Assembly (NCBI GenBank): GCA_049976305.1
Contig: JBMFIM010000018.1
Location: 1 to 12,958, forward strand
Reading direction: 5' to 3'
Length of the DNA stretch: 12,958 bases
Origin: Candidatus Micrarchaeia archaeon
GTDB taxonomy: Archaea > Micrarchaeota > Micrarchaeia > Micrarchaeales > CABMGC01
Below are positions 1 through 12,958 of this stretch, piece after piece (the first letter of the stretch is position 1; each line of letters starts with the position of its first letter). The notes below the pieces were generated by a model. It had not been told where the DNA came from, did not search any database, and saw nothing but the letters and a program-made list of their open reading frames with translations. A program made the translations under genes and the position numbers.

Positions 1-942
1 ACAGCAACACCTGCGCCTTTCCAGCAAATGATTCAGTTCTCTGAATCAAGCTACTCAAACTACATAACCTACAACGGCAACATAGCCAATTTCGAATTCT
101 TCACGCAGAGCGGCTCAATAATACCTGCATGGATAGAAAGCAACAACAGTGGCACAATAACCGTGTGGCTCAATTTAGCAAACGGCGTGCCAGCGTCAAA
201 CTCAATTACAGTTTATCTTGGCTTTGCCAGCCAAGGCACAAACCTGCTCTCAAGCAGTGGCACAACTGGCATAGGCGAAGCCCCACAGCTAAGCTCAACC
301 TATGCTCAATACGACGATGGGGCGAGCGTGTTCAACAACTACTGGAACTTTGCTGGAACCAGCTTGCCAACAGGCTGGGAAGTGATTGGAAGAGCAACTG
401 TAACTGTTAATAATGGCGTTTCAATTAGTGGAGGGACGGGAGCCACGTATGATAGCCCAGGAATAGAATATACTTCTACAAATTTTGGCACATCTTCTTT
501 TGTAATAGATTCGCTTTCAGAACCTAACACAGGTGGCACGGGGTGTTTTGGGGGCCTAGGAACAAGGCAAACTACATCAACAAGTTTAAGCAATTACCAA
601 ATAGTTGTTGACTCGGGAGACTTATGGGGTGCTTGTGGCAGCGGATACTATAGTATTCAGTATCTAACTAGTTCTTCTTCATCTTCCACAGAAAGCACAA
701 GTTTTACAATAAATCAAAATACGTTTTATATAATAACACTGATACAAAAAAGTTCCACCGCAGAAGGTTTGCTAAATTATGGAAGTCTAGCTACTGCTTC
801 ACCAGTTTCTATATATAACCCAGGAAATAATTATCTAACGTATCTCGCTAACTATGGAGGTGCGTATGTACAATGGCTTCGCACACGTGCCTACCCGCCA
901 AACGGCGTGATGCCAAGCTACAGCTTCGGCAGCGTAAGCTAG
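1..942 (+). CDS. 5'-truncated DUF2341-like, Ser/Thr/Gly/Asn-rich secreted or surface protein (beta-rich, possibly lectin-like)
   Basis: The frame is open from base 1 ([13 protein letters not shown]...) to TAG at 940-942, so the ATG at 28 is probably internal. Motifs [35 protein letters not shown] and [15 protein letters not shown] resemble DUF2341-type surface proteins of acidophilic archaea (recognised from memory). Confidence 0.72.
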
Positions 943-3335
943 GAAATGAGCTTTGCATCGACTACCGAAGCGCCTTGCTCTAGGCGCATGAGCCTTACTC
1001 CGCTTGCATGCCTGCCCGTATGCCTTATCGACTCCACAGGTATTGTTATGCTTATGCCCTTTGAGTTTAGAATTACGAGCTTTGTCTCGTTGCCTACAAA
1101 CATCGCCTTTGCCACATTGCCCGTCTTCTCAGTTACTTTGAAGTTTGCAACTCCACTGCCGCCTCTGCCTTGAAGCCTGTAACTCTGCACGCTTGTCAGC
1201 TTGCCGAATCCTTTCTCTGATATTGTAAGCACGCTGCCTTGGTCGTTTGCTGCGAAGACGTTTAGTGCTGAGTCATCGCCATGCAGTCTTATTCCCCTTA
1301 CTCCTGCGGCGTTCCTGCCCATCTCCCTGAGCCTGCTTTCCTCGAATCTTATTGCCTTTCCTTTCCTTGTCGCTATGAACAGATACGGCATGTTTTGATA
1401 CATGTGCACATCTACTATCGCGTCGCCCTCTCTGAGCAGCAGCGCCCTTACGCCTGTGGACCTAGGCCTTGCAAACAGCCTTGCAGGCGTTTTCTTCACT
1501 ACTCCGCGCTTAGTGAGGAATACCAGCTTGCTGCTCTCGAAGTCCTTTATGTTGAATGCATCTACTACTTGCTCGTCTTTCAGATTGAGAAGATTGACTA
1601 TGGACCTGCCTTCTGCATAGCGCGTGCCTTCTGGCACGTTGTATGCCTTTAGCCAGTAAACCCTGCCTTTGCTTGTCACAAAAAGCAAGTAATCCTTGTT
1701 GTTCGCTATCACTATCCTTTTTACGAAATCCCCTTCCTTTAGATTCATTGTTATTATACCTTTTCCTCCACGCTCCTGCTCCTTGTACTCGCCTATTCCA
1801 AGCCTCTTCACATAGCCCTGGTTTGTAAGCAGAATAGCTACTTGCTCGTTGCTTATCAGGTCCTCGTCCTTTATCTCCTCAGGCTGCTCCATGAACACGA
1901 GCTCAGTCCTTCTGGGCCTCTGGTATTTCTGCTTTATTTCCTGTATTTCCTGCTTTATTATAGCGTCAATCTTCTCAGGAGATGCAAGCACCTGCTTATA
2001 GCTTGCTATCTTTTCATCAAGCTGCTTCTTTTCATTCTCTAGCGTGGTGTGCTCGAGCTTTGTAAGCCTGCCAAGCTTCATGTCTAGTATTGCGTTTGCC
2101 TGCTTTTCGCTTAGGCCGAGTTCTGCCATGAGCTTTGACTTGGCTTCTGCTGTTTCGCCACTAGACCTTACTATTTCAACAACCTTGTCTATGCTTGCTA
2201 TTGCCACAAGCAGCCCTTCGACAATGTGTGCTCTCTCTTGCGCGACCTTAAGCTCATACTCGCTCCTTTTCCTTACAATCTCCCTTCTGTAGTCTATGAA
2301 TGTGTTTACTAGCTGTAGAAGGTTGTAGCTTCTGAGCTCATTTCCTTTTACAGCCAGGTTTATTATCGGAAACGTGATTTCCATTTGGGTGTGCTTGTAA
2401 AGCTGGTTTATGACCTGCTCTGGGCTTGCATCGTTTGCAAGGTATATGCTTATGCTTATGCCCTGCTTGTCGCTTTCGTCGTGAAGGTCGCGTATGCCTG
2501 TTATTACCTTTTGCTTTGCCAATTCAACTATGCTTTTTATCAGCTGGGCCTTGTTTACGCCATACGGTATTTCGGTGACCACAAGCTTGCGGTTTTTTTC
2601 ATCTATGTTTATTCTTGCCCTTACAGTCACCTGGCCCCTGCCAAAACGATAGCCGTTAAGCGCGGAGCCTGACATTATTGCTATGCCCCCGGTAGGGAAG
2701 TCAGGGCCTTTTATTATCCGCAAAAGGTCCTCAACAGTAGCATCTTTGTGGTCTATGGCATATGTCACAGCTTCGCAAACCTCTGCCAAATTGTGAGGGG
2801 GCATGCTTGTTGCTACGCCTACAGCAATGCCTTCTGCACCGTTTATGAGCAGGTTTGGCACCTTAGCAGGAAGCACAACAGGCTCTTGCTCAGTATTGTC
2901 GAAATTAGGCACGAACTGCACAGTTTCTTTATCAAGGTCTTCAAGCATCTCCTCTGCAAGCCTGCTTAGCCTTACCTCTGTGTATCTCATTGCTGCTGGA
3001 GGATCGCCGTCTATCGAGCCCATGTTTCCTTGGCCTTCTATAAGCACATGGTTCATTGAAAAGTCCTGGGCCATTCTTACTATTGCATCATAAACTGCTA
3101 TGTCGCCGTGAGGGTGGTATTTGCCTATGACTTCACCGGTTACCCTTGCACTCTTCTTTGTTGGCTTGTCGTGCGTGTTTCCTATCTTGTACATTGCATA
3201 AAGTATGCGCCTCTGCACAGGCTTTAGGCCGTCGCGCACATCAGGAATGGCCCTGCCTATGATTACGCTCATTGCATAGTCTAGATAGCTCCTTTGTATT
3301 TCGTCTTCAACAGCGACCTTTCTTATCTCTGCCAT
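939..3335 (-). CDS. gyrA: DNA gyrase subunit A
   Basis: 798 aa. [16 protein letters not shown], catalytic AAMRYTE, GyrA-box QERGGKG (1758-1778) and C-terminal beta-pinwheel repeats. No intein. Confidence 0.98.
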
Positions 3336-3342
3336 GTTACCA

Positions 3343-5253
3343 CTATATGTCCAAGTTCAGAACCTCTGCTGCATGCTCCTCGAGGAACTTCCTCCTTTGC
3401 TGGACGTCAAGCCCCATGAGTATCTCAAAGAGCTCGTTCGCACGCTCAGCGTCGCGTATTGTCACCTGCTTGAGCACCCTCTTTTCCGGGTTCATCGTAG
3501 TTTCCCACAGCTGCTCCGGGTTCATTTCGCCAAGACCCTTGTATCTTTGCACTTCAGCATCGTTGCCAAGCTCCTTTAGCCTTTCATTAAGCTGCTCGTC
3601 GGTATAGCAGTAATATGTTTGCTTACCTTTTGATACCCTGTAGAGGGGCGGCTGCGCTATGTAGATATAGCCAAGCTCTATGAGCCTGCGCATGAAGCGG
3701 TAGAAGAAGGTAAGGAGCAAAGTCTGAATGTGGCTCCCGTCCACGTCTGCATCACTCATAATTATGATTTTCTTGTACCTTATCTTGTCTGGATTGAATG
3801 TTTCCTTTATGCCCGTGCCTAGTGCAGTAACAATGGTGTTGAGCTCAGCGCTGCTGAATATTTTCTCCTCGCTAGCCTTCTCAACGTTGAGTATTTTGCC
3901 CCTAAGCGGGAGTATCGCCTGGGTTTGCTTGTCCCTCCCTTGCTTGCTTGAGCCGCCAGCGCTTTCTCCCTCTACTATAAACAGCTCAGCCTTGTCAGGA
4001 TCATCTTCTATGCAGTCCGCCAGCTTGCCTGGTAGCACCGCATTTTCAAACAGGCTTCTTTTCCTAGCAAGCTCTCTGGCCTTCTTAGCGCTTTCCCTAG
4101 CATTCATTGCCAGCAAGACCTTCTCTGATATCGCCTTTGCATCCTGCGGATGCTCTTCCAAGTACCTTGACAGCGTGGAATACACGCTAGTCTCTACAAG
4201 CGTCTTTATCTCAGTATTTCCGAGCTTTTCCTTTGTCTGTCCTTCGAACTCAGGGTTTGGAAGAAGCAAGCTTATCACTGCGGTAAGCCCCTCTCTAATG
4301 TCCTCCCCTGTTACCTTGCTTGTGTCTTTGCCGTTTTTTGACATGTAGTTGAGGATGGCTCTGCTCAAGCCGGACCTGAAGCCTATTACGTGCGTGCCTC
4401 CTTCCTCGGTCCTTATGTTGTTTACAAAGGATTCCAAGTGTTCATCGTAGGTGTTGGTGTATTGAAGGGCGTAAGTCAGCGTCACTCCCTTTTCTTGCCT
4501 TTGCTCCTTTATTATGCTTGTCAGGGGCTGCTTGTCTTTGTTGATGTAGCTTAGCATGTCTTCTATACCTCTTTCAGAATAGTACTCAATTTCCTCGTGG
4601 GAATTGAATCTTTCATCTATGAACCTTATGCGCAAGCCTGGATTCAGAAAGCTTGTATAAAGAAGCCTTTCCTTTAGCATTTCAGAGTCGAACCTAGGAT
4701 TAGGGAAGATCTCAGGGTCTGGCTTGAACCTTACTATGGTGCCTGTCTTGTCTGTATTACCAAGCTCTTGCAAAGGCCCCTTCGGCTCGCCCTTGGCGAA
4801 TTCCTGCACATATTCTTTCCCGTTCTTGAATACGTGCACTATCGTATATTCTGACAGGGCGTTTACTACGGTTAAGCCTACGCCGTGCAAGCCACCAGAG
4901 ATCTTGTAGACATCGTTGCTGAACTTGGCGCCTTTGTGCAGTGTGGTCATTATTACTTCCAGCGCGCTCTTACCGTAGTTTGGCATTATATCCACAGGTA
5001 TGCCTCTGCCATCGTCGCTTACCTCTGCTATGTCCCCTGTCTGATCCTCTGAGAGCCTTATGCTTATGTTCTTGGCATAGCCTGCAAGCGCCTCGTCTAC
5101 AGCATTGTCAAGGACTTCAAAAAGAAGGTGCAAAACGCCAGAGCTGCCAGTAGAGCCTATGTACATTGCCGGCCTTTTCCTTATTCCTTTTGTGCCTTCA
5201 AGCACTACAATTTTTGAAGCATTATACTCACTAGATGCATTGGGATCTGCCAT
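3343..5253 (-). CDS. gyrB: DNA gyrase subunit B
   Basis: 636 aa. GHKL motifs [72 protein letters not shown]-terminal NLDI. Short form without the E. coli-type insert. Ends 7 nt before the gyrA ATG. Confidence 0.98.
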
Positions 5254-7703: not shown

Positions 7704-8867
7704 CTATTTTTTATTTGGCAAATACTTCCTTAGCTCTGCCGCTTTGTCAGTGTTCTCCCATGTAAACTCCTTTTCGCTTCTGCCGAAATGACCATATGCG
7801 GCAGTTGGTTTGTAGATGGGCCTTCTAAGCCTAAGCTCCTTTATGATTGAAGCGGGTCGCATGTCAAAGTGCTTCTTTACAATTTCAGCCAGCTTGTCGT
7901 CTGGCACCCTTCCGGTGCCCAAGGCGGTAACGTAGAAGCCTACTGGCTCCGCTACGCCTATCGCATATGCAATCTGCACCTCGCATTTTTCGGCCAAGCC
8001 AGCCGCTACTATGTTCTTTGCTATGTACCTGGCATAGTATGCTCCAGATCTGTCAACTTTTGTAGGGTCTTTGCCGCTAAAACATCCTCCGCCTGACTTG
8101 CCAACGCCTCCGTATGCGTCAACAACAGTCTTCCTGCCTGTAAGTCCAGAATCAGCCAAAGTTCCGCCAATTACAAACCTGCCGGTGCCGTTGATTATTA
8201 TCTTGGTGTTTTTGTCCACAAGCCCTTTAGGTACGACTTCGTTTATGACATGCTTCATAATGTCGCGCCTTACCTGGCCTATGCTGACGCTTTCTGAATG
8301 CTGCGCTGCTATTACTATGGCGCTTATCCTTTTCGGCTTTCCATCTACATACTCTACAGTCACCTGGGACTTGCCGTCGGGCCTGAGATAGGGGATTATG
8401 CCCTTTTTTCTGCACTCAGTTAGCCTTCTTGTCAAAGCGTGGGCAAGCACAGTAGGCAGTGGCATTAGTTGTGGAGTTTCGTTGCAAGCATAGCCGAACA
8501 CAAACCCTTGGTCGCCTGCCCCGAGCTCCTCGCCTTTCCTTTCATCAACCCCTATTGCTATGTCTGGAGACTGCTTCTCTACCGATACTACAACCCCGCA
8601 AGTGGCCCAGTCAAGGCCGTCTTTCGCGTTGTCAAGGCCTATCTCCTTGAGCGTGCTTCTGACTACTTTGGTTATGTCTACATTAGCAGTAGATGTTATT
8701 TGGCCTGTTACCACCACTATTCCCTGCATTATCAGAGTTTCGCAGTCTACGTGGGCAAACGGGTCCTGCCTTAGGTATGCATCTAGCACAGAATCCGAAA
8801 TTAAGTCAGCAACCTTGTCGGGGTGGCCTTCGGTAACACTCTCAGAAGTGATATGGTATATTGTCAT
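7704..8867 (-). CDS. metK: S-adenosylmethionine synthetase, bacterial/eukaryotic type (divergent)
   Basis: 387 aa. [63 protein letters not shown]. Confidence 0.96.
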
Positions 8868-11305: not shown

Positions 11306-11833
11306 TCACCCTTTCCTGAACTCCTCTATAACCCTATCCAAGCATATCCTAAGCCATGGGGTATAGTTTTGAGGGTTTTCCTCAACGTCCTTTTTTAGCA
11401 TGTCTAGGCTTATCCACTTATACGCCGAGGCCTCTTCCTTGTTTATGTTAGGCTCGCCATCGTATCTGCCGAAGATTACATGGTCGTATTCCCATTCGGT
11501 GAGGCCGTTGCCGACGTCGGCCCTGTAGATGAAAGAGAATTTCTCTTCCATGTCGCAATCAAAACCCATCTCCTCTTGGAGCCTTCTGTGCGCAGCTTCA
11601 ATTACAGCTTCGCCAGGTGCAGGGTGCGAGCAGCACGTGTTGCTCCATTTTCCTGCTGAGTGGTACTTGCCCTCTGCCCTTTTCTGGAGCATGGTCTCAC
11701 CTTTGGAATTGAACACAAATATGGAAAACGCCCTATGGAGCTTGCCGCCGTTTTTGTGGGCCTCAAGCTTGTCTTCTATGCCTACTTCGTTGTCGTGTTC
11801 GTCTACTAGTACCACCTTCTGCCTGTCTATCAA
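11306..11833 (-). CDS. idi: isopentenyl-diphosphate delta-isomerase, type 1 (Nudix fold)
   Basis: 175 aa, TTG start. AH...LHRAFS, WSNTCCSHP (catalytic Cys), RRLQEEMG, FIYRA, EWEYDHV (catalytic Glu), TPW. Confidence 0.95.
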   Translation of the reverse strand: MIDRQKVVLVDEHDNEVGIEDKLEAHKNGGKLHRAFSIFVFNSKGETMLQKRAEGKYHSAGKWSNTCCSHPAPGEAVIEAAHRRLQEEMGFDCDMEEKFSFIYRADVGNGLTEWEYDHVIFGRYDGEPNINKEEASAYKWISLDMLKKDVEENPQNYTPWLRICLDRVIEEFRKG

Positions 11834-11863
11834 GAAACCACAATATTCTTTTGCATGTTTAAT

Positions 11864-11879
11864 TTCTTATACTCTTCGT
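11864..11879 (-). promoter_or_regulatory. putative BRE/TATA promoter of the idi-dys-AlkP-metK operon
   Basis: Minus strand ACGAAGAG-TATAAGAA about 31 nt upstream of the idi TTG. The 9-mer AGTATAAGA also occurs upstream of gyrB (5303-5311). Confidence 0.4.
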
Positions 11880-11899
11880 TTTTGCAAGCTTTCTGAATG

Positions 11900-12067
11900 C
11901 AAGGTTGCGACTTCGGGCAGCGTGGAAGTTACGCTCAGGGATAGAGTATAAGTCCCGCAAGTGATTTTCGACGAACTGAGAACCGATAAACGCATCCTTT
12001 GCACAAAGCGGTGAGCGCACGAATGCAAAGGAAGCCCAAGCCATTTATGGGCGGATGTCACAAGGTT
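11900..12067 (+). repeat. 7-bp direct repeat CAAGGTT (11900-11906 and 12061-12067) bracketing the omegaRNA-like element
   Basis: Directly visible in the sequence. Confidence 0.8.
11907..12061 (+). mobile_element. IS200/IS605-family right-end remnant (decayed tnpB tail plus right-end hairpin); no transposase or nuclease gene
   Basis: The 3' end GAAG-CCCA(AGCCATTTA)TGGG-CGGATG-TCAC has the same layout as the IS608-type right end (guide tetranucleotide, hairpin, spacer, TCAN cleavage site). Broken translation GQRGSYAQG*SISP / ELRTDK / HPLHKAV resembles archaeal TnpB C-terminal tails (from memory). Confidence 0.7.
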
Positions 12068-12081
12068 AGCCGCACATATTA
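11907..12081 (+). ncRNA. putative orphan TnpB omegaRNA (reRNA) scaffold plus ~20-nt guide position
   Basis: Stems seen: CTCAG 11934-38/CTGAG 11976-80; GGGAT 11938-42/GTCCC 11952-56; TCCTTTGCA 11995-12003/TGCAAAGGA 12024-32; GCCCA 12034-38/TGGGC 12048-52; alternative AGCGTG/TACGCT 11919-35. Scaffold ends at TCAC 12061. Expression is unproven. Confidence 0.5.
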
Positions 12082-12106
12082 TATGCAGTGAGGGAATGAA
12101 CCAGGA

Positions 12107-12143
12107 GACAAAAGGGCCATGACAAAAGATGAGGCGACAAAAG
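12107..12143. repeat. three copies of GACAAAAG at 14-15-nt period
   Basis: Exact copies at 12107-12114, 12121-12128 and 12136-12143; a degenerate GACACCGAAG follows at 12155. Confidence 0.75.
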
Positions 12144-12204
12144 AAGTTATAATCGACACCGAAGCCAAGCCTAAAACGCCTAAATGAATCAAGCAAGAAA
12201 TCAA

Positions 12205-12232
12205 GAAAAGTGAATATAAAAAATAAAACAAT
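12205..12232 (-). terminator. oligo-U archaeal terminator region for the upstream surface-protein gene
   Basis: Minus strand TTGTTTTATTTTTTATATTCACTTTTC immediately downstream of the TAG at 12240. Confidence 0.45.
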
Positions 12233-12239
12233 CAACCTG

Positions 12240-12958
12240 CTAGTGCTTTCTTCGTCTGCTTCTTGATGCGTAGTAAGCCACTATTACTACTACAATTGCC
12301 ACTATGATTATTGTTGCTACTATTAACCATAGGTTGCTCTTTGTCGGTGTTGGAGTTGGTGTCGGCAAAACTGTAGTAGTGGGCACTGTGCTTGTTGTGG
12401 GCACTGAGGTTGTCGGCACGGTTGTGGTTGTTGTTGCTACTGTCTTGGACAATATGCCTACGAGCGGATCCTTTGGAACTACAAAGGTTATCGCGCACGT
12501 TGCAGGGTTGACTGTATATTGAGCTATCTGGGTCCATGTGCCGTTCTTATAGATGAATGGTGCCACGCTTGATGCCGGCGTGCTGCACGGATATGTCATG
12601 CTTACATTTGTGCTGACGCTTACATTTGCGCTTATTGTCAAGTTAAGCGCCTTCAGCACAGTGTAATTTGCAGGAGGCTTTGGCGCTGTGCTTGTTGCGT
12701 TTGCCGCATATATAGTTACAGGTGCAGGCGTGCTCGATGGCGTGCTGATATAGATTATTGCTTGCTCGTTTGTAAAGTTCACTACTACTGGCGATGTAGC
12801 AGAGATGGTCTTGTTAACGCTGCCAGAGGCGCCGGTTATTGATACAGATGTTACAGGAACCACCGTTGTGGTAGTGGTAGGTGTTGTGGTTACTGTGGTT
12901 GTTGGCACAGTAGTTGTGATCACGCCGCCGACACTAGGTGTTGTGGTTACTGTGGTTG
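12240..12958 (-). CDS. 5'-truncated membrane-anchored surface glycoprotein (Thr/Pro-rich linkers, small beta domain, C-terminal TM helix plus basic tail)
   Basis: The frame is open to the window edge (...TTVTTTPSVGGVITTTVP...). 8 N-x-S/T sequons and 2 Cys in a ~125-aa domain; TM segment LWLIVATIIIVAIVVVIVAYYA followed by SRSRRRKH. Confidence 0.88.
   Translation of the reverse strand, partial: TTVTTTPSVGGVITTTVPTTTVTTTPTTTTTVVPVTSVSITGASGSVNKTISATSPVVVNFTNEQAIIYISTPSSTPAPVTIYAANATSTAPKPPANYTVLKALNLTISANVSVSTNVSMTYPCSTPASSVAPFIYKNGTWTQIAQYTVNPATCAITFVVPKDPLVGILSKTVATTTTTVPTTSVPTTSTVPTTTVLPTPTPTPTKSNLWLIVATIIIVAIVVVIVAYYASRSRRRKH
12878..12958. repeat. perfect direct repeat of at least 24 bp at 57-bp period within the Thr-rich linker
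   Basis: TAGGTGTTGTGGTTACTGTGGTTG at 12878-12901 and 12935-12958; the second copy runs into the window edge. Confidence 0.9.

Follow-up and report, generated by a model that had tools for sequence, protein, structure and literature searches.

Positions 11913-12061 (plus strand) of the 12,958-nt window that we analysed, which is contig C18 of a 34-contig, 723-kb, 93.7% complete assembly of a Candidatus Micrarchaeia archaeon, hold what remains of the right side of an IS605/IS1341 element that carried tnpB and had inserted at a TTTAA site, and this stump is likely an inert scar that is decaying without selection (we give this reading a probability of about 0.87). The remnant, 149 nt long, belongs to a subfamily that we name A and consists of the last tnpB codons, which overlap an omegaRNA scaffold, and the right end. 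That it is an ordinary scar is argued first by an empty site in a close relative and by a putative guide that is neighbouring host DNA.

To define the element, we searched the DNA of relatives with positions 11830-12240 of the window. Matches were found in 26 of 60 relatives, and apart from a few short ones they began at query position 84 or 139 and ended near 233, that is, within 11913-12062; the match in G004, the closest congener, also covered the flanks. The boundaries of the remnant were set by where these matches start (query position 84) and stop (232-234), which places 11907-11912 outside the element proper, as junction sequence. Identity to the tnpB 3' ends of relatives is mostly 70-80% across the full 149 nt, with sharp common boundaries (the nearest copies, L054 and L003, reach 83.8% and 82.6%), and most of the relatives' matches lie directly behind the TnpB zinc-finger and RuvC-III motif. 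A family-wide DNA search detected the IS605/IS1341 family in 47 of 117 same-family genomes. An earlier note on this DNA had read the locus as a tnpB 3' end with an IS200/IS605 right end, forming an omegaRNA scaffold without its gene, and this homology bears it out. The right end terminates in GGATGTCAC at 12061, with the terminal TCAC and the subterminal hairpin (5 of 8 pairs) of the IS200/IS605 (IS1341-type) kind, and the scaffold is both homologous to and overlapping with the tnpB 3' end, as in omegaRNAs. A complete cognate element of 1347 nt could be aligned to the window through its last 159 nt only, so the left end is absent, and with a right end alone the remnant differs from PATEs, in which both ends are fused around no gene. 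No tnpA ORF or intact tnpB was found at the locus. What is left of the coding region is a TnpB tail broken by a premature TAG (11942-11944, plus strand; GAG in the family) and by deletions of 5 nt and 1 nt, and only 79 nt separate the element from the idi start at 11833; the earlier statements that the tail is broken, that there is no room for tnpB and that no left end remains were thus all correct. Scanned against Rfam to E=1, the whole window showed no match to an omegaRNA family; the one hit, a chance one to an lncRNA, lay elsewhere than at the locus. RNase P or SRP RNA, a first-sight idea, was dropped after the tnpB homology appeared and Rfam gave nothing.

The gene on the left (11306-11833, minus strand) matches the NUDIX fold and is 92% identical in amino acids to its G004 counterpart; we take it to be idi, encoding isopentenyl-diphosphate isomerase. 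It apparently starts with TTG at 11833. An out-of-frame ATG at 11856 (minus strand) opens an 8-codon upstream ORF before it, which G004 has too. Upstream of idi, within the retained host DNA, lies a TATA-like box (11866-11872, minus strand) that is presumably an element of the idi promoter.

Among the five congeners, idi is present in all and the element lies beside it in none, which favours the scar reading. In G004 the match to the window stops at 11901 and resumes at 12062; between those points G004 has 78 nt of host DNA that end in TTTAA, followed directly by the homolog of the guide. The putative guide itself (12062-12081, plus strand), the 20 nt that follow the right end, is identical to the G004 flank at 15 of 20 positions, and at 30 of 36 over a longer stretch, and its homolog leads into an intact ORF of 74 aa. 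Since the TTTAA abuts the guide homolog at the empty orthologous site, in the place of a TAM, the guide is the host flank that any insertion there would acquire. Judged from this alignment, it is the orthologous host flank of a TTTAA insertion site, in the upstream region of a small host gene. The G004 site could have arisen by precise excision rather than represent the ancestral state, and the guide would be host flank in that case as well.

Missing from the window are the left end and nearly all of tnpB, and also the 78 nt of host DNA that G004 has here, with the TAM at their end; we place the deletion junction at 11902-11912. The seven bases at the left of this junction (11901-11907) are the same as at the right flank of the G004 empty site, by chance or by templated repair. 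The small charged host ORF downstream, intact in G004, is broken here too: its 5' part lies at 12096-12187 (plus strand) and its 3' end is found on contig C28 (about 1870-1950), before what we take to be mevalonate kinase. This breakage also suits a scar. In four of the five congeners, idi is divergent to the presumed mevalonate-kinase-like gene; in this genome the idi-kinase pair of the genus is broken up, with the small ORF between them split across two contigs.

The structure of the scaffold was assessed on a reference alignment of 22 copies of the 159-nt form, leaving out rows of a 167-172-nt variant, rows nearly identical to others and one whose 5' part was unrelated. On it we drew by hand a structure of 38 pairs that includes a loop-to-terminus pseudoknot, in favour of which a long-range pair between the 5' start and the 3' end given by RNAalifold was set aside. 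The structure is paired in 98.3% of the cells, with 4 pairs changed on both sides, a score that is biased upward since the structure was drawn from the same rows. The window keeps 29 of the 38 consensus pairs. In the 5' domain (11934-11980, plus strand) helix P1 (11934-11938 with 11976-11980) is intact (5/5), P1b keeps 2/3 pairs and P2 1/4. The change that creates the TAG in the tail also breaks the P1b pair, and P2 has suffered a 5-nt deletion plus substitutions. A weak alternative hairpin can be formed in the P2 region, where the alignment is ambiguous (-1.4 kcal/mol, versus -4.6 in L003); a degenerate pattern for this P2 variant gave 0 matches in metagenome and genome contigs, and no natural subfamily with that hairpin was found there. 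P3 (11995-12032, plus strand) is intact (9/9); its arms, 11995-12003 and 12024-12032, are the perfect 9-bp stem that the earlier note had already recognised. Inside it lies hairpin P4 (3/5), and a pseudoknot (4/4) is predicted between the P4 loop, GTGA (12011-12014), and the terminal TCAC. At the right end (12034-12061, plus strand) the subterminal hairpin carries a 4-nt deletion and is cut from 8 to 5 pairs in the family alignment, with the terminal TCAC kept. Since a mini-element of G004 (L065) has the same shortened form, the shortening may be inherited or recurrent. The previous claim that the stems still pair is accordingly true of three helices (P1, P3 and the pseudoknot, 18 pairs in all) and untrue of four (P1b, P2, P4 and the right-end hairpin). 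The fold z-score is modest (-2.05), and 4 of 200 shuffles fold equally well.

Is this damage what decay without selection would produce? The window breaks 9 of the 38 pairs, versus 0-3 in each of 31 reference copies (15 with a full ORF, 8 tnpB-linked at contig ends, 4 partial and 4 with little upstream DNA). Nine pairs are also broken in each of the orphan copies L007 and L021, and two in the orphan L009. Substitutions private to the window fall in paired columns as often as chance predicts, in 6 of 12 cases when counted against the 22 copies and in 4 of 6 when counted against 40 rows, all 4 of them breaking pairs; none is compensated, and these counts are small, which makes the selection tests weak either way. 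We simulated neutral decay by randomly mutating the nearest tnpB-linked copy with 6, 12 or 18 substitutions and the three deletions, and obtained means of 6.5, 8.4 and 10.1 broken pairs, respectively. The damage in the window appears to be as neutral decay predicts, and the closeness of 9 to the neutral mean of 8.4, together with private substitutions that are not depleted in paired columns, supports the scar reading. The intact state of P1, P3 and the pseudoknot counts against it. Taken as a fixed set, these helices survive the simulated decay with P=0.10, 0.03 and 0.01 (6, 12 and 18 substitutions); for any intact helices totalling 18 pairs, which allows for post hoc choice, the values are P=0.54, 0.22 and 0.08. 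The scaffold may still be loadable by a TnpB.

The source of the stump is, from the features of its relatives, an ordinary, active IS605/IS1341 family. Of the matches in relatives, 56 copies were classified, a selection that favours the best scores, with three duplicates dropped. A full tnpB ORF is present in 21 of them and a partial or broken one in 7; 12 lie near a contig end (9 with upstream tnpB sequence, 3 uninformative), 5 have too little upstream DNA and 11 are without tnpB upstream. With these 11, which lie at unrelated loci, and eight more in this genome, gene-less stumps are common, a further argument for a scar. The RuvC D-E-D triad is kept in all 21 full-length cognate TnpB ORFs of this set; the cognate TnpBs would therefore be, by motif, nuclease-active and not TldR-like, and the parallel with nuclease-dead TldRs drawn before finds no support in them. 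The left ends of the family are preceded by TTTAA in 13 of 18 cases and by another NTTAA in 5, and at two loci (L015 and L052) an upstream ORF presumably encodes a TnpA-like protein, to judge from its motifs. A by-product of this survey is a family of archaeal TnpBs of roughly 410-430 aa, for which we predict TTTAA as the TAM and have a consensus scaffold of 38 pairs; by title and opening abstract lines, the papers found on TnpB in Micrarchaeota do not deal with this family. One single-contig genome (G044:C1; loci L034-L044 and L083) has about a dozen subfamily-A copies and several of a second subfamily, B, and lends itself to studies of the TAM and the omegaRNA in the two subfamilies.

In the genome under study, eight further subfamily-A fragments were found, of differing lengths and about 80-90% alike over short stretches. 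They comprise right-side stumps at C9:24121 (internally deleted), C5:17614 and C7:2934, two-ended mini-elements at C1:6114-6239 and C6:37793-37927, and left-side stumps at C7:24059 and C4:46839, with a left end plus a 5' scrap of tnpB near C4:4546. The stump in the window is itself a single 149-nt copy, not one of several similar copies at different sites such as mobilisation would leave. The mini-element at C1:6114-6239 and L065 (G004:C3) lie between matching flanks in the two genomes, which means that some remnants are older than the divergence of these species. The search for a cognate tnpB and for stand-alone copies that had been proposed was successful in part, with cognate loci in relatives and the eight fragments here: tblastn found no intact subfamily-A tnpB in the 93.7% complete assembly. 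As this assembly breaks at tnpB copies, a cognate gene that went unassembled is possible. HMMs for the Y1 transposase (tnpA) gave no match in the assembly, with the control positive in 6 of 14 genomes. These two results are again in favour of a scar. TnpB HMMs matched contig C12 only. C12 and the left ends found at the ends of C1, C3 and C9 belong to subfamily B, with near-identical ends inserted after TTAT, apparently a recent IS605/IS1341 subfamily. Its tnpB is split at contig ends, and the subfamily is seen also at C12:22080-22672 and at the start of C26. When its scaffold is aligned with the stump, 93 of 135 bases agree. The genome has a single C-terminal half of a TnpB, in which both of the acidic motifs that can be seen are preserved. 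The absence of a TnpB from the genome and a decay that is random rather than compensatory had been named beforehand as marks of a simple scar, and the sequences largely answer to this description.

From these data we propose the following history. A TnpA, acting in cis or in trans, would have inserted the element 3' of a TTTAA upstream of the small host gene, likely in its promoter. IS605/IS1341-type elements use flank-derived guides to cut the empty site and so persist, and the omegaRNA of this element would likewise have taken the flank as its guide. The promoter of the element, its tnpB, its left end and the 78 nt of host DNA would then have been lost in a deletion whose leftward extent was probably limited because idi had to retain its promoter, after which the stump would have gained its stop, three small deletions and unpaired changes. 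It is, by all appearances, no longer able to excise, and its original target (TAM plus flank) seems gone from this genome. The scar as such matters little; it offers a worked example of how an orphan omegaRNA-like locus may originate, by insertion at a TAM, one-sided deletion and drift, and its lesson is that the empty site should be looked for in a congener before domestication is claimed.

Among the alternatives, the one that fares best, improbable as we consider it, is that the stump is an accidental guide acting in trans, transcribed from a host promoter-like sequence and loadable by a TnpB encoded elsewhere, with no selected role. Its core helices and the terminal TCAC are intact, and published accounts describe gene-less elements that carry omegaRNAs usable in trans. 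Regarding the effector, the genome does have the tnpB of subfamily B, whose ends are near-identical, in pieces at contig ends, but this subfamily inserts after TTAT and not TTAA, its scaffold has just the 93 of 135 bases in common with the stump, and the best TTAT-adjacent match to the guide, among 8978 sites, is of 6 nt. The subfamily-A ORF was not found in the assembly, although a DNA run (X1, which may be the source sample of the assembly) yielded a contig of high depth that derives from a subfamily-A tnpB 3' end, and cognate genes therefore likely exist in that community. A contig of this run covers 12034-12318 without differences, reaching just 28 nt into the element, less than the 31 nt required for bridging; a second DNA run (X2) gave nothing. 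Also against accidental use in trans is that the element has lost its left end and the promoter it came with. The stump of the window is surpassed as a candidate trans-acting guide by a two-ended, gene-less subfamily-B element on C1 (about 20530-20764, minus strand) that keeps a whole omegaRNA region, 97% identical to the tnpB end of C12.

Far less probable is the domestication favoured by the earlier note, in which the RNA-coding portion was selectively retained as a guide that steers a TnpB, or a nuclease-dead TldR-like protein, to a host promoter or a virus. We looked for targets of the guide. The exact 20-nt guide had 0 matches in metagenome contigs, and viral contigs had 0 exact matches to the TAM plus 13 nt of guide or with 18 nt, in searches by exact matching, which miss imperfect targets; this result, too, is what a scar would give. 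Within the genome, the 20-nt sequences that come next to the guide in similarity differ from it at 5 positions, and the best seed match among 4186 TTAA sites is of 9 nt, next to ATTAA at C1:7703. This site, upstream of a gene for a membrane protein, is in an intergenic gap of 58 nt between genes that we take, from their sequences, to be SUI1-like and NuoM-like. Such a TAM-adjacent match counts against the scar reading. It is conserved in G004, positions 7-8 of the guide differ from the G004 flank in the direction that extends it, the core pairs of the scaffold are intact, and some TldR guides are reported to be just 9-11 nt long (PMC10705468). On the other hand, about 6% of TTAA-flanking 20-mers (about 0.06) have a 9-nt partner by chance, and one of five other stumps, the 80-nt one on C5, has a 9-nt match as well. 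The C1:7703 site was not found in the three other alignable congeners (the fifth gave no match), and the guide locus is missing from all five congeners, with no viral match. No nuclease-dead TnpB was found, the triad being complete in the cognate ORFs of relatives and the two visible acidic motifs present in the C-terminal half of this genome. With a guide that is host flank, no compensated private change, a deletion that also took host DNA and gene-less stumps that are common, we do not uphold selective retention. A specific form of this idea, that a short-seed guide is kept to steer an unassembled cognate TnpB, or a subfamily-B TnpB of relaxed specificity, to the TTAA-flanked upstream region at C1:7703, seems to us just as remote. 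Were it true, it would be a case of early omegaRNA domestication in a small-genome archaeon, with a promoter-derived flank that regulates a look-alike promoter, and domestication in general would mean RNA-guided regulation arising from the guide alone, without an adjacent dead nuclease.

We give hardly any credence to the stump being kept as DNA, as an outward promoter or a spacer for the neighbouring genes: its column-36 change creates a plus-strand TATA-like box (11943-11952), an exact inverted copy of the one upstream of idi, but L056, a tnpB-bearing copy, has the same base, and the downstream ORF that it would drive is broken. The presence of this base in L056 also means that the column-36 change is not a hallmark of orphan copies, as we had supposed at one point. 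A sigma-70 scan, with a model unsuited to an archaeon, found 1 site versus 0.9 expected.

The right-hand stump can be compared with several known systems. The elements ISDra2, the ISGst series and the Sulfolobus SisTnpB1 element have the same overlap of the scaffold with the tnpB 3' end and a guide beyond the right end. The stump differs from all of them in being the last 149 nt, without left end, gene or TAM, and unable to move or cut alone. IS605/IS1341-type elements are reported to insert 3' of an AT-rich TAM, with an empty 'donor joint' in relatives (10.1101/2023.03.14.532601), an arrangement to which the G004 site corresponds, and the TAM reported for SisTnpB1 is TTTAA (10.1101/2023.03.06.531077). 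IS605 remnants of Haloquadratum (e.g. HqIRS71) are described in PMC3119063 as frequent and gene-less, with a terminal segment retained in which the C-terminal coding region is disrupted. The stump likewise lacks the gene and keeps the terminal segment, and by this comparison it is best regarded as a degenerate IS605 remnant of that kind. Stand-alone omegaRNAs that work in trans with OMEGA effectors are described as evidently mobilised and as having a compatible effector in the genome (PMC10691335). The stump resembles them in its scaffold, its flank-derived guide and the lack of an adjacent effector gene; unlike them, it is a single diverged truncation, and a compatible effector was not found in the assembly. 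In TldR systems the RuvC triad is decayed, the gene lies adjacent and the pairing of guide and target is conserved (PMC10705468). They share with the stump a guide RNA derived from a TnpB omegaRNA and a short TAM-adjacent match upstream of a gene, whereas at the stump there is no adjacent gene, no decayed triad and no conservation of the guide locus. Finally, mobile PATEs keep both ends and the stump one; two-ended mini-elements do occur elsewhere in this genome, at C1:6114-6239, at C6:37793-37927 and on C1 near 20530-20764.

The rest of the window contains other genes. On the minus strand, a gene whose product resembles a surface protein is represented by its 3' part (12240-12958); the encoded piece of 227 aa has stalks rich in Thr and Pro, is hydrophobic in a C-terminal segment and has no Pfam match. 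At 939-5253 and 7704-8867 lie ORFs that, by their motifs, we take to encode gyrase A, gyrase B and a bacterial-type SAM synthetase, and that adjoin genes which are presumably, by the same kind of motifs, those for EF-1alpha and rpS10.
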